5,062 bases of DNA from a virus. Its lineage: Duplodnaviria > Heunggongvirae > Uroviricota > Caudoviricetes. The stretch lies in IMG/VR virus record IMGVR_UViG_3300012974_000295; one strand, given 5' to 3'. Positions 2,378 to 5,062 of the stretch are shown piece after piece; the first letter of the stretch is position 1, and each line of letters starts with the position of its first letter. A model generated the notes under the pieces. That model saw nothing but the letters and a program-made list of their open reading frames with translations, ran no database searches and had not been told where the DNA came from. Position numbers and translations under genes: made by a program.

Positions 2378-2425
2378 TTTGCTGCTCCTCATCATATCGA
2401 CCCTGCAAGGTCGGTTGGTTTCTCC

Positions 2426-2514
2426 ACAAAACAGAGAAGAACACCTGCGGTGGCAGCCGCCCGGATGGATTGGGTTATGAGCCCGTCGTCCGGTGATGCT
2501 CTTCTCTGTTTTGT
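2426..2514 (-). repeat. Long inverted repeat (15 bp perfect, 16/17 extended) enclosing a 55-nt GC-rich core; predicted compound RNA hairpin in the yfdP 5' leader
   Basis: 2426-2442 ACAAAACAGAGAAGAAC is the reverse complement of 2498-2514 GCTCTTCTCTGTTTTGT with one mismatch. The core contains nested small inverted repeats (GCGG/CCGC 2447-2460, GGG/CCC 2472-2484, CCGG/CCGG 2461-2493). The element ends 49 nt upstream of the yfdP ATG. Confidence 0.5.
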
Positions 2515-2560
2515 AAAAAGAGCGGTACCAGCCGGAAGCAAGTGTACAAACTGGTACCGC
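2515..2560 (-). terminator. Candidate intrinsic terminator within the early-left leader (minus strand)
   Basis: Perfect 10-bp stem GCGGTACCAG / CTGGTACCGC (2522-2531 and 2551-2560, 7/10 GC) followed on the minus strand by UCUUUUU (2521-2515). The 19-nt loop is larger than typical. There is no U-tract on the plus strand, so any activity is minus-strand specific. Confidence 0.4.
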
Positions 2561-2985
2561 CAAAGCAGTGGCTGTTGTGGTGACCGGTGCTGATCTCCGG
2601 CTTGCGGTTATTTCAGACTCTCACGGGTGTTTAATTGCCCCGCCGAACAGCTCTTTTCCGCAATAGCTGCAATGTCTTTCGCGCATCAGCCTGCGCATTC
2701 ACCACAACGTTGAGAGCACTTAGCCAGTTACGGCACCACACTTTGTCGCGGTTCCATAAATGCCCTCATCGTTGCACCCTGGTCTCTTCCCAGGTGTCAA
2801 ACCGAACCGCCACGCTGGTTAGGCGTCTTATCAGCATCATCATTGACTTGCACATTCCGGCTACCTGGTTTGTTTGCCCGAGCAAGGAGTGGATTGTCCC
2901 CTTTAACGTCCCCAGACCGCTAACGACGCATGTGCCATACGCCGTGTTACAACCAAATTTTGTTAGTACCTTGTTTGTTGGTCTG
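2561..2985 (-). ncRNA. Candidate structured noncoding leader or ncRNA transcribed from the pL-like promoter (no N-like ORF present)
   Basis: Every minus-strand frame is broken by stops every 10-60 codons. The only long ORFs (2635-3003 plus, 2766-3044 minus) are Arg/Cys/His/Thr-rich and not protein-like. By hand count the region is about 55% GC against roughly 30-40% for the adjacent repressor gene. Several local inverted repeats are present (e.g. GGTCTGG 2980-2986 with CCAGACC 2912-2918). Boundaries are approximate. Confidence 0.3.
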
Positions 2986-2991
2986 GAAAGA

Positions 2992-3020
2992 AAGATAAAA
3001 TGAAGTTGCGCATTATGCAA
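2992..3020 (-). promoter_or_regulatory. pL-like early-left promoter (candidate)
   Basis: On the minus strand, TTGCAT (3020-3015, inside an operator site) is followed by a 17-nt spacer and TATCTT (2997-2992). Predicted start is near 2985, reading toward yfdP. Confidence 0.4.
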
Positions 3021-3044
3021 GTGTTTTTGTTGCGAGATATGCAA
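3006..3044. promoter_or_regulatory. OL-like operator pair: two 15-bp imperfect palindromes
   Basis: TTGCGCATTATGCAA (3006-3020) and TTGCGAGATATGCAA (3030-3044) have centres 24 bp apart. They share the TTGCG...GCAA pattern with the sites between the cI-like and cro-like genes. Confidence 0.5.
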
Positions 3045-3050
3045 TTTGAT

Positions 3051-3079
3051 GGGTAATGAAAAGCCACCTTCGGGTGGCT
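3051..3079 (-). terminator. Intrinsic terminator downstream of the repressor gene (minus strand)
   Basis: 7-bp stem AGCCACC / GGTGGCT (3062-3068 and 3073-3079) with a 4-nt loop, followed on the minus strand by UUUUCAUU. It lies about 20 nt beyond the repressor stop codon. The plus-strand tail is not U-rich. Confidence 0.55.
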
Positions 3080-3099
3080 AATTGATGAGGAGGTAAGGG

Positions 3100-3792
3100 T
3101 TAATTGTGTCGCTTAAGGGTTTGTGACTGGCTGATTAAGACCTTTCCAAAGACCATAAACCGGTGTTCATTTTCGCTGGTAATTCCCCATTCACGGTAAA
3201 TCTGGTTATCAGAAATCACCAGTAGTTTGTCAGGTATCATTTGCAGTCGTTTGACATAAATTTTATCATCAAAACCAAATACATAGATACCATCTCCATC
3301 AAACTGATTGATACTGACATCAACGAAGATGAGATCTCCTGGCTCAATGGTTGGACACATACTGTCCCCACGAACGTTGATTACTTTAATGTGATTTGCT
3401 GGCCGTCCGCCAAACATCGATACAGCATTATCAGTTCTGTATTCAATGGCATGAATCACATCAATGACATCACCGCCCTGGATAAGGCCATTTCCCGCAC
3501 TGGCACTGATATCCAGCATTTCAATACGGAATACATCCTTCACCTGCGCAACATCCTCACTAATACTGTTTTTACATACAGTATTACTTTTGAAGTCTGA
3601 GGTAAAGAGATCAGCAATATCAACACCTAAGCTCCTGGCAATATTACTCAGGGCTTGTTCAGTGAATTGTTTCTGCTTACCTGTTTCCAGGCGCGAGATA
3701 TTTGCCGCATCCACTCCTATTGCTTCAGCGAGATCGGCGATTTTCATGTTCTTCGCTTGGCGAAGTTGTCTGACTCGATTTCCTATGTTCAT
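3100..3792 (-). CDS. cI-like prophage repressor: N-terminal XRE-type HTH plus C-terminal LexA-like S24 peptidase autocleavage domain (230 aa)
   Basis: N-terminus RVRQLRQAKNMKIADLAEAIGVDAANISRLETGK is a classic HTH. The C-terminal domain has the Ser-Lys dyad context (VRGDSMCPTIEPGDLIFVD and YVKRL) and a candidate Ala-Gly cleavage site (SASAGNG). It is divergent from the cro-like gene. There is no SD upstream of the ATG at 3792. Confidence 0.85.
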   Translation of the reverse strand: MNIGNRVRQLRQAKNMKIADLAEAIGVDAANISRLETGKQKQFTEQALSNIARSLGVDIADLFTSDFKSNTVCKNSISEDVAQVKDVFRIEMLDISASAGNGLIQGGDVIDVIHAIEYRTDNAVSMFGGRPANHIKVINVRGDSMCPTIEPGDLIFVDVSINQFDGDGIYVFGFDDKIYVKRLQMIPDKLLVISDNQIYREWGITSENEHRFMVFGKVLISQSQTLKRHN

Positions 3793-3798
3793 GCGTTT

Positions 3799-3827
3799 AT
3801 TACATTTCTTTATTGCGCGTTAAGCAA
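3799..3827 (-). promoter_or_regulatory. PRM-like promoter for the repressor gene, predicted to give a leaderless mRNA
   Basis: On the minus strand, TTGCTT (3827-3822) is followed by a 17-nt spacer and TGTAAT (3804-3799). The -10 ends 6 nt before the ATG at 3792, so the predicted start is at or next to the A of the ATG, as for lambda cI from PRM. The -35 overlaps operator site 3813-3827. Confidence 0.35.
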
Positions 3828-3875
3828 ATCAACTTGCGCAAAATATTTGCGTGAAATAATATGCTCATCACGCAA
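3813..3875. promoter_or_regulatory. OR-like tripartite operator: three sites with centres 24 bp apart
   Basis: Sites are TTGCGCGTTAAGCAA (3813-3827), the palindrome CGCAAA-ATA-TTTGCG (3837-3851, overlapping TTGCGCAA at 3834-3841) and ATGCTCATCACGCAA (3861-3875, reverse complement TTGCGTGATGAGCAT). Centres fall at 3820, 3844 and 3868. The half-sites TTGCG/CGCAA are shared with the OL pair. The middle site has inverted half-site polarity and is the least certain. Confidence 0.5.
3834..3862 (+). promoter_or_regulatory. PR-like promoter for the cro-like gene
   Basis: TTGCGC (3834-3839), a 17-nt spacer and TAATAT (3857-3862) predict a start near 3869. GGAGG (3881-3885) lies 4 nt before the ATG at 3890. 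The -10 and start overlap operator site 3861-3875. Confidence 0.45.
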
Positions 3876-3889
3876 TATGTGGAGGTTAT

Positions 3890-4150
3890 ATGCAATCACC
3901 ATTACGGAATGTGCGTAAAGCGCACGGATTTACTTTGCAGCATGTTGCTGCTGGCGTTCAGGTCAATCCAGCGACGCTGAGTCGTATTGAAAGACTGGAA
4001 CAAATTCCATCTATCGAGCTTGCAGAACGTCTGGCCAATTTTTTTAAGGGTGAAATCAGCGAAATGCAGATTCTTTATCCGGCACGTTTTCAATCTAGCC
4101 AAAACCAGAATGGGTTTAAACCACAGGAACAGGAGATAAGCCGTGGGTAA
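3890..4150 (+). CDS. Cro-like HTH regulator (86 aa)
   Basis: Small ORF divergent from the repressor gene, with an HTH segment (TLQHVAAGVQVNPATLSRIERLEQ) and GGAGG upstream. Its TAA stop at 4148-4150 overlaps the GTG start of the next gene by 8 nt. Confidence 0.8.
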   Translation: MQSPLRNVRKAHGFTLQHVAAGVQVNPATLSRIERLEQIPSIELAERLANFFKGEISEMQILYPARFQSSQNQNGFKPQEQEISRG

Positions 4151-4694
4151 GCATCACTGGAAAGTGGAAAAACAGCCTGAGTGGTACGTGAAAGCTGTCA
4201 GAAAAACTATCGCGGCGTTGCCGGGGGGTTACGCTGAAGCTGCTGAGTGGCTGGATGTAACAGAGAACGCTTTATTCAACCGCCTTCGTGCAGATGGCGA
4301 TCAGATTTTCCCGCTGGGATGGGCAATGATTTTACAGCGCGCTGCTGGCACTCACTACATTGCGGATGCTGTCGCACAGTCTGCTGGTGGGGTGTTTGTA
4401 TCGCTTCCTGAAATTGAGGAAGTAGAGAACGCCGATATAAACCAGCGCCTGCTGGAAGTCATCGAACAAATCGGGAGTTACTCAAAGCAGATTCGTTCGG
4501 CAATCGAAGATGGGGTAGTGGAGCCACACGAGCAGACAGCAATTAATGATGAGTTGTATCTGTCAATTTCGAAGCTCCAGGAGCATGCGGCACTGGTCTA
4601 CAAAATTTTCTGCGCTCCAGAAAAGAGTGACGCCCGCGAGTGTGCAGCTCCGGGCGTCGTGGCGTTTTGTGTCTGTGGAGAAACTAACGCATGA
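4143..4694 (+). CDS. cII-position regulatory protein (183 aa); possibly a CII-like/CP76- or YdaT-like regulator
   Basis: GTG start at 4143 with AGGAG (4131-4135) 7 nt upstream, translationally coupled to the cro-like gene. Protein-like composition with a possible HTH around AEWLDVTENALFNRLRADG. Function is inferred mainly from gene position; family assignment is unverified. Confidence 0.55.
   Translation: MGKHHWKVEKQPEWYVKAVRKTIAALPGGYAEAAEWLDVTENALFNRLRADGDQIFPLGWAMILQRAAGTHYIADAVAQSAGGVFVSLPEIEEVENADINQRLLEVIEQIGSYSKQIRSAIEDGVVEPHEQTAINDELYLSISKLQEHAALVYKIFCAPEKSDARECAAPGVVAFCVCGETNA
4619..4658 (-). terminator. Candidate minus-strand intrinsic terminator inside the 3' end of the cII-position gene (oop-like antisense RNA terminator)
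   Basis: Perfect 8-bp GC-rich stem GACGCCCG / CGGGCGTC (4629-4636 and 4651-4658), with an extra GAG/CTC pairing inside the loop. On the minus strand it is followed by ACUCUUUUCU (4628-4619). On the plus strand a U-run starts only 6 nt after the stem. Confidence 0.35.
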
Positions 4695-5062
4695 ACAGTT
4701 TAACGGCAAATAACCGTTTGTCGCAACAGCTGGTGGTCAGCGTCTCTGAACACCTGTTGTTACGGCATGAATGCAGATTACCAAATCACCAGGCTGTAAG
4801 TAACCACAGAGAACTTTACCTGACTGTGGGGGGCGAGTTGTGCAGGAACTTAACCGCTGGTTTCGTGACGGAAGAGGGCTTTATGTTCATGTTATTCGTT
4901 GGGAACCAGAAACACAGCGCGTTATCTATCTTCGCAAAGACTACCCGCATGAGTGCTTTAGTCCTTTGTGGAAATTCAGGCGTGATTTTGTTGAGTGTGA
5001 CGGACCACCAACACATTGATTCTGCCATTCCGGGACGTTACACTGTTCAGGCACCTTATAAA
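4691..5062 (+). CDS. Hypothetical protein, partial (5' end in window, runs off the right edge); position suggests first replication-region gene
   Basis: The ATG at 4691 overlaps the TGA of the upstream gene (ATGA) and GGAG lies 10 nt upstream. The frame is open for 124 codons to the window edge. An alternative small ORF in another plus frame (GTG 4840 to TGA 5019, 60 aa) also looks protein-like, so the frame is unresolved. Confidence 0.35.
   Translation, partial: MNSLTANNRLSQQLVVSVSEHLLLRHECRLPNHQAVSNHRELYLTVGGELCRNLTAGFVTEEGFMFMLFVGNQKHSALSIFAKTTRMSALVLCGNSGVILLSVTDHQHIDSAIPGRYTVQAPYK

Follow-up and report, generated by a model that had tools for sequence, protein, structure and literature searches.

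The lambda oop RNA acts by RNase III-dependent repression, as reportedly shown by Krinke and Wulff in 1987 and 1990, and Kawano, Aravind and Storz reportedly showed in 2007 that SymR exerts cis-antisense control over symE, the gene of an SOS-induced toxic protein. Here we describe an element of comparable layout in a stretch of viral DNA of 5,062 nucleotides (nt), IMG/VR record IMGVR_UViG_3300012974_000295 (Caudoviricetes), which at its full length is called the window below. The element lies on the minus strand, across the 3' end of ymfL, the gene of a CII-like regulator, and the beginning of the following open reading frame (ORF), which occupies the position of ymfM in Escherichia coli K-12. 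Taken as a whole, the locus is probably best explained by a constitutive antisense RNA that is terminated by a hairpin and pairs with the end of ymfL and the start of the downstream ORF. The existence of the corresponding K-12 RNA is already known (published as ECS003). New in the present work are the reading of the locus as oop-like, the evidence from covariation and for the strand that folds, a conserved promoter, the overprinting of the RNA gene on two ORFs and the link to an ORF of YmfM type.

Shinhara et al. 2011 (PMC3175480) listed nine cis-antisense candidates for which a sigma-70 promoter was predicted, and ECS003 was the most abundant among them. In the older K-12 coordinate numbering it is located at 1203047<-1202932, opposite 'ymfL & ymfM' in the prophage e14. 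Its reads (mean 358) fell mostly within 78 nt, a Northern blot gave a band of ~70 nt plus a faint one of ~120 nt, and its level was constant over the tested media, stress conditions and an hfq mutant (PMC3175480). A different K-12 dataset (PMC7373196) shows antisense reads over ymfL about as numerous as sense reads in total RNA, an increase of the ymfL sense reads by 1.6-2.8-fold in rnc mutants, and p19-captured RNase III duplex fragments at 19-85 reads per million for ymfL, against 0-6 for ymfT and 4-9 for ymfM. Expression of the small RNA is established for the e14 orthologue. The features of the window that correspond to this locus are listed here, with the basis of each in brackets:

4143-4694, plus strand: ymfL, gene of a CII-like regulator of 183 amino acids (aa) (Pfam PF06892, NCBIfam NF041471, PHROG 101)
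4677-4680 and 4691-4693, plus strand: Shine-Dalgarno (SD) sequence GGAG and start codon ATG of the downstream ORF (sequence; conserved across genera)
4726-4721, minus strand: -35 element TTGCGA (conserved in 21 lineages)
4702-4697, minus strand: -10 element TAAACT (TA.A.T invariant in 21 lineages)
~4693 to ~4621, minus strand: predicted antisense small RNA of ~70-73 nt (ECS003 orthology, fold z = -3.63, synonymous suppression)
4629-4658, minus strand: terminator stem-loop of 11 base pairs (bp) with one bulge and the 7-nt loop CUGCACA (folding and covariation)
4628-4617, minus strand: U-rich tail ACUCUUUUCUGG (T-rich in 59 of 59 unique homologous sequences)

Judged by sequence, the RNA of the window is an orthologue of ECS003, with 85% identity (70 of 82 aligned columns). 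ECS003 starts with CAUGCGUUAGUUUCUCC, the complement of the ymfM start codon; its 5' end CAUGCG coincides with window position 4693, and its nucleotide 78 falls within the U-tract past the hairpin. In the window we place the 5' end of the predicted RNA at 4693-4690 and its 3' end in the U-tract around 4622-4619. Between these limits it would consist of an unstructured 5' arm of ~35-40 nt (to ~4659), the hairpin (4658-4629) and the U-tract (4628-4617). An initial annotation, made from the letters of the window, had drawn attention to an oop-like arrangement in the interval 4619-4709, which probably holds the 3' two-thirds of a small-RNA gene on the minus strand. The RNA length given there, 55-60 nt, is too short, as ~72 nt is expected from the K-12 5' end at 4693. 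Its central claim, a minus-strand terminator of a short antisense RNA at the 3' end of the gene in the cII position, is borne out by covariation, the T-rich tail and the K-12 RNA, but the promoter and the length that went with it are not.

The gene in the cII position was identified from family models. The 183-aa ORF matches the Pfam family Phage_CP76 'CII' (PF06892) and the NCBIfam 'YmfL family putative regulatory protein' (NF041471), and also PHROG 101, a 'CII-like transcriptional activator'. The hairpin does lie in the 3' end of a CII-like gene, as had been proposed, but the gene is unrelated to the lambda-type cII family. The ymfL copy in the K-12 e14 prophage is ~88% identical to the window at the DNA level, with homology extending up to window position 4704.

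The GC-rich minus-strand hairpin with a U-rich tail that had been reported inside the 3' end of ymfL is indeed present, with its coordinates shifted one base to the left. Read on the plus strand, it consists of GACGCCCG (4629-4636), a bulged C (4637), GAG (4638-4640), the loop TGTGCAG (4641-4647) and the second arm with CTC (4648-4650) and CGGGCGTC (4651-4658). It is located within the last 66 nt of ymfL, and 36 nt separate its end from the stop codon. The minus-strand hairpin folds with -18.5 kcal/mol, and six U are present among the first 10 nt past the stem (ACUCUUUUCUGG). A GC-rich stem-loop with a directly adjoining U-tract on the transcribed strand, as expected of a Rho-independent terminator, is what we find, with an interrupted U-run. 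The minus-strand RNA of 76 nt (4693-4618) reaches z = -3.63, with none of 200 shuffles folding as well, and the 30-nt stretch 4630-4659 that spans the hairpin has z = -2.6. A consensus scan of the window for promoters and terminators listed neither the hairpin nor either of the two promoter candidates discussed below; the hairpin was presumably missed because its bulge splits the stem into 8 + 3 pairs.

The evidence that we regard as decisive for the hairpin being more than a chance structure is comparative, drawn from homologous sequences. YmfL-encoding loci were gathered from genomes, viral contigs, metagenomes and annotated records, resulting in 254 usable loci with 59 distinct region sequences; the lowest protein identity to the YmfL of the window among them is 54%. 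A hairpin is present at the same place in every collected locus. Most Enterobacteriaceae have the 30-nt hairpin nearly unchanged. In Limnobaculum, the Rosenbergiella type, Edwardsiella and several uncultured phages the arms differ in sequence but remain paired, and the bulge is on the other arm or gone. Compensatory changes maintain the stem over ~20 lineages that range from E. coli to Edwardsiella, Rosenbergiella and Limnobaculum. In an alignment of 19 distinct sequences, 98.6% of the cells are paired, 7 of the 11 pairs have changed on both sides and none of 500 shuffles equals this result; these covariation figures are slightly conservative, since the MAFFT alignment places the shifting bulge imperfectly and so yields three 'other' cells. 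When the pairing partner is slid by 1-3 columns in the same alignment, pairing amounts to only 35-53%.

According to RNAalifold the terminator helix is the sole conserved helix in the RNA. Length variation is limited to the middle of the RNA, where the window type and the e14 type differ by 6-nt indels, and the loop sequence is nearly invariant despite available synonymous changes. The RNA of the window type can also form a 5' hairpin (GCGUU...AACGC, in the region 4659-4690 of the minus strand). Other lineages do not have this hairpin, and it was rejected as part of the element as it is not conserved. Two of the collected contigs carry labels from outside the enterobacteria. A Nocardia alni contig of 415 bp (L007) contains the region, with a protein segment 100% identical to the window, and the region in a 'Chryseobacterium sp. 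18061' contig (L009) resembles the Scandinavium and Erwinia versions; both are probably cases of contamination or mislabelling.

The same comparison discriminates between the two strands. Read on the minus strand, every one of the 16 wobble cells is G.U or U.G and there is no A.C cell, whereas on the plus strand the wobble cells would be A.C mismatches. By our own count the strand-informative wobble changes represent about six independent events, all in one direction. The stem of the Rosenbergiella type (GAACGCCCUGAG/CUUGGGGCGUUC) and that of Edwardsiella form unbroken 12-bp helices on the minus strand only. The first 10 nt past the stem point the same way: on the minus strand they hold 4-7 T in 59 of 59 variants, whereas on the plus strand 5 T are found in the window type only, against 1-3 T in all other types.

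Constraint on this segment is also visible in the coding sequence of ymfL, where the small RNA extends over the last ~25 codons. Among 25 representatives aligned by codon, synonymous diversity is ~0.49 throughout ymfL and falls to ~0.10 over the final 22 codons that are informative (Mann-Whitney p = 7e-12). The drop starts at the codons that encode the U-tract and matches the small-RNA footprint exactly. The peptide encoded at the hairpin is DARECAAPGVVA in most lineages; elsewhere it reads NAPSCSSGRS, DAQTVQVVGV, DARSVQLAGV, HRECRPSAP or DAQGLQPKAS, partly via a frame shift inside the stem. Going by these alignments, the conserved thing at the 3' end of ymfL is not the peptide. The family models end at residue 150 (Pfam) and 156 (NCBIfam) of YmfL, ahead of the tail that the small RNA overlaps, and this tail appears frozen at the nucleotide level because the antisense RNA element is overprinted there. 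Window positions 4614-4694 correspond to YmfL residues ~158-183, the last ~27 residues of the protein and beyond both models; their sequence looks like it is dictated by the antisense RNA and not by protein function.

The promoter had to be reassigned. The initial annotation had proposed TTGCCG (4709-4704) and TAGTTT (4686-4681). Both hexamers do occur at these positions, but only 7 of their 12 bases agree with the consensus, and the homologues do not conserve them; moreover, TAGTTT as a -10 element would fall inside the RNA, as the 5' end of the K-12 orthologue, CAUGCGUUAGUUU, coincides with window position 4693. The promoter that we favour instead matches at 8 of 12 positions. With scores of 8/12 and 7/12 the choice could not be made from consensus alone, and it was decided by conservation and the K-12 5' end. 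Across the 21 lineages, anchored on CATGCG, TTG and G5 of the -35 element are invariant and C4 is near-invariant, the spacer to the -10 element is always 18 nt with its sequence free to vary, the -10 element occurs as TAAACT, TAAATT, TACAAT, TAGAAT or TACACT, and a fixed 3 nt separate its end from CATGCG. The promoter is situated inside codons 3-12 of the downstream ORF (start at 4691), and on the plus strand its elements are read as Ser-Leu and Ser-Gln codons of that ORF. The Leu codon is always TTA (TTG/CTA in the Rosenbergiella type) and the Gln codon always CAA, which is a synonymous constraint like that in ymfL. In K-12, genomic systematic evolution of ligands by exponential enrichment (SELEX) detected binding of RpoD holoenzyme to an 'internal promoter' between ymfL and ymfM (PMC3946193). 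Inspection by eye of the surroundings of the promoter revealed no LexA box (CTGT-N8-ACAG).

DNA homology between the window type and e14 ends at ~4704, yet the -35 island and the 18-nt spacing are kept just past the break. On the aligned sequences the mosaic boundary is thus immediately outside the small-RNA promoter, and the retention of the -35 element and the spacing suggests that the RNA gene and its promoter travel with ymfL as one module.

The downstream ORF, whose coverage by the RNA the initial annotation overlooked, may be the main target of the RNA. Its start overlaps the ymfL stop as ATGA, and the 5' part of the small RNA covers the whole of its GGAG and ATG. In other genera the ORF encodes a conserved protein of 59-67 aa (PHROG 20047), and its K-12 version corresponds to the N-terminal half of YmfM. 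Expression of YmfM blocks FtsZ-ring formation, and YmfM is the SOS-inducible SfiC function (bioRxiv 10.1101/2020.11.19.390815). The ORF of the window keeps the SD sequence, the ATG and the first ~13 codons, after which its N-terminal half diverges and it runs on into the frame of Rha.

Annotation of this part of the locus is inconsistent. The start of Rha is annotated at 4691 in some records and at 4949 in others. Within 4691-5019 of the window (3083-3441 of locus L001 in K-12 e14) the ORF at the ymfL stop overlaps a DUF4222 ORF in another frame (4840-5019), and RefSeq records annotate either the one or the other. The pBAD-ymfM clone that causes filamentation also holds 160 of the 180 nt of the DUF4222 frame, so that it looks ambiguous in this clone which product, that of the ymfM frame or that of the DUF4222 frame, inhibits division.

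Under the explanation that we prefer, a constitutive sigma-70 promoter, TTGCGA-18-TAAACT (4726-4697), embedded in the opening 12 codons of the ORF that follows ymfL, would drive the minus-strand RNA. Transcription would begin at ~4693-4690 and end at the hairpin (4658-4629) and its U-tract, giving an RNA of ~72 nt. Such an RNA would match the rightward early (pR-type) mRNA with perfect complementarity, both across the final ~72 nt of ymfL and at the SD sequence and AUG of the next ORF, and pairing would most likely stop ribosome entry at that ORF. The duplex would further be a substrate for RNase III, like that of lambda oop at cII, and its cleavage may destabilise the ymfL end of the message. 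Being constitutive, the RNA could impose a threshold that leaky rightward transcription would have to exceed in the lysogen, damping ymfL and the later genes. We infer these consequences of pairing, and the biological role, from the geometry and from what holds for lambda oop and SymR/symE; by the same analogy the RNA would lower expression of ymfL, the gene in the cII position.

Other explanations of the same hairpin were weighed against this one. The initial annotation had named a plus-strand attenuator as its alternative; the hairpin would then act as an attenuator or terminator in the rightward mRNA, at which transcription past ymfL would halt or pause as at a tR1-like checkpoint. The plus strand does fold well too (-18.3 kcal/mol for the 30-nt stretch 4630-4659), and in the window type it has a tail, GTGGCGTTTTGTGTCTG, whose first 10 nt include 5 T; this tail, however, holds only 1-3 T in all other lineages, and the G.U pairs that the variants form on the minus strand become A.C mismatches on the plus strand. 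Termination at a site 36 nt ahead of the ymfL stop would also give non-stop mRNAs, and the RNA seen in K-12 is that of the minus strand. Given the counts of T, the direction of the wobble changes and the strand of the K-12 RNA, we consider a plus-strand role very unlikely. The wobble asymmetry (16 G.U against 0 A.C) is equally relevant to the idea that the hairpin is a palindrome at the DNA level, that is, a protein-binding site or a recombination hot spot at the mosaic boundary, with any RNA being incidental: it would be meaningless for double-stranded DNA. Such a palindrome might be suspected from the perfect inverted repeat of 8 bp and from its proximity to ~4704, where the homology between the window type and K-12 e14 breaks. 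But the bulge switches arms, the arms of Edwardsiella and Rosenbergiella are wholly changed while pairing is kept, and the repeat is flanked by a conserved T-tract and a conserved promoter, all of which makes this idea extremely improbable.

Hardly any weight can be given either to a functional C-terminal peptide of YmfL (DARECAAPG) as the cause of the conservation, with the hairpin as its by-product. The motif does occur in most YmfL homologues, but the frozen sites are synonymous sites, other lineages keep the stem with unrelated peptides and even in another frame, and the family models end ahead of the tail. Somewhat more probable is the possibility that the small RNA is real but that base pairing is not what matters, the effect arising either through transcriptional interference from the convergent promoter or through a terminator that insulates ymfL, cro and cI against leftward read-through. 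The promoter stands head-on to the rightward operon and appears constitutive, and the terminator is the sole helix conserved in every lineage. Conservation of the 5' arm over the complement of the SD sequence and AUG is nonetheless not required by such roles, nor is a nearly invariant loop where synonymous changes are available, and RNase III duplex fragments map to ymfL in K-12. We therefore judge interference or insulation to be unlikely, though less so than the other alternatives.

Several points weigh against an antisense RNA acting by pairing at this locus. Expression in the phage of the window is read across from the K-12 orthologue by sequence likeness. The U-tract of the window RNA is interrupted (UCUUUUCU), and the K-12 Northern of ECS003 shows some read-through. 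Position C4693 is only 4 nt from the -10 element, and A4692 or G4690 would be a more usual start, which leaves an uncertainty of ~3 nt. The p19 and rnc data from K-12 have gene-level resolution only, and a duplex cluster at K-12 positions 1202930-1203049 was not found among the p19 table entries listed. Finally, the diverged N-terminal half of the window ORF has no match to PHROG 20047, and this divergence makes the assignment of the translation target less secure than it is for the other genera.

The RNA gene as we describe it shares its DNA with the last 25 codons of one protein gene and with the first 12 of the following one. A more far-reaching proposal, which we put forward as speculative and rather doubtful, is that the RNA is the brake of a conserved three-part module, comprising the CII-like ymfL, the antisense RNA and a small ORF for an SOS-inducible division inhibitor (YmfM/SfiC family), and that it acts in trans between prophages. 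The 5' arm and the hairpin are near-identical among otherwise heteroimmune phages of YmfL type, so that a resident RNA (for example ECS003 of e14) could act in trans. If true, an RNA of ECS003 type would act on relatives that superinfect the cell or reside in it as well, such as SfV, SfII, ST64B, mEp460 and the Stx2a and Stx2c phages, and thereby form a layer of cross-immunity that is independent of repressors.

The element is widespread. Of 5426 complete E. coli genomes, 2708 carry all or part of it, in as many as four copies each, and it also occurs in 88 phage records that include SfV, SfII, ST64B, cdtI, mEp460 and mEp390. Further carriers are Stx2a and Stx2c converting phages, Klebsiella phages and the Citrobacter phage phiNP. 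Among the matches listed (12 genomes and 40 phage records) none has an RNA feature annotated at the element, and a search of the whole window against Rfam at E <= 1 gave no match. The locus would represent an oop arrangement that has arisen, or has been kept, beside an unrelated CII family. Because the element sits on the ribosome-binding site of the ORF in the ymfM position, it also offers a testable handle on how leaky expression is kept low, both for the SfiC/YmfM division inhibitor and, in several Shiga-toxin phages, for the early operon.

The window as a whole is the immunity region of a lambdoid prophage. In a DNA search with the part from 3800 to 5062, identity was 99.9% to Escherichia phage PhiR63_1 and ~98% to mEp460; SfV and cdtI are ~98% identical from ~4115 on. 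Beyond ymfL follow the small ORF, DUF4222 and Rha, and the remaining features are:

left part of the window, leftward: yfdS/R/Q/P-like genes
2400-3060: gene-free stretch of ~650 nt
3100-3792, leftward: gene of an S24-type cI repressor
3890-4150, rightward: cro-like helix-turn-helix gene

Two further RNA structures were noticed on the minus strand of this region. The leader of the yfdP-like gene (2385-2600), located within the gene-free stretch, is very strongly structured, with -89.4 kcal/mol and z = -5.6, which none of 200 shuffles equals. This leader contains a 12-bp hairpin (2560-2522) followed by UCUUUUU and then a stem of ~25 bp around a branched loop. No Rfam match was obtained for this leader, which could be a simple leader, an antitermination-type RNA or a small RNA. 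The consensus scan further listed a clean intrinsic terminator at 3062-3079, AGCCACCCGAAGGTGGCT followed by TTTCATT, directly 3' of the cI-like repressor gene.

Among the closest known systems is ECS003, of which the window RNA can be filed as the orthologue. Both RNAs have the same position, antisense to the 3' end of ymfL and the ribosome-binding site in the ymfM position, spanning the stop codon of ymfL and the beginning of the ORF that follows, and they share the hairpin, the -10 and -35 hexamers, the spacer length and an identical first 22 nt. Differences are that the window RNA has 6 nt fewer in its middle part, that its U-tract (UCUUUUCU) is more continuous than that of ECS003 (UUACUUUCU), and that the downstream ORF diverges after codon ~13. 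ECS003 itself has only been detected, and it has no Rfam family.

Similarity to lambda oop is one of arrangement. Reading the lambda region directly, we find that oop (77 nt) starts 11 nt ahead of the O start codon, that the -10 element CATAAT of pO overlaps the O ATG with the -35 element TTGAGT in early O codons, and that the terminator lies 55 nt inside cII. Both loci thus have a short constitutive RNA antisense to the rightward early operon that starts at a gene boundary, an intrinsic terminator in the 3' end of the gene in the cII position (the overlap being 55 nt in lambda and ~72 nt here) and promoter elements embedded in the first codons of the next gene. The oop-like arrangement proposed initially is therefore upheld as far as layout is concerned. 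Between the two RNAs there is no significant sequence homology, as 28 of 500 shuffles align as well. The overlapped gene here belongs to the unrelated CII family Phage_CP76, and the genes that follow are the small ORF, DUF4222 and Rha instead of the replication gene O. Moreover, on our reading lambda oop starts just 3' of the complement of the O SD sequence and leaves it uncovered, whereas the window RNA covers both SD sequence and AUG. We accordingly call the window RNA oop-like in layout, position and presumed working, but do not file it as an oop homologue.

In the last respect the locus resembles SymR/symE. There, too, the promoter of a constitutive RNA of ~75 nt lies within the opening codons of the target ORF, and the RNA covers the SD sequence and the start codon, and in K-12 the target ymfM is, like symE, linked to the SOS response, being an SOS-inducible cell-division inhibitor. 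The systems have no sequence relation, and here the presumed target comes second in a phage operon, with the RNA overlapping the upstream gene as well. The geometry of a type I toxin-antitoxin or SymR-like system, with SD sequence and start codon covered and the promoter inside the target ORF, is nonetheless present in the window.

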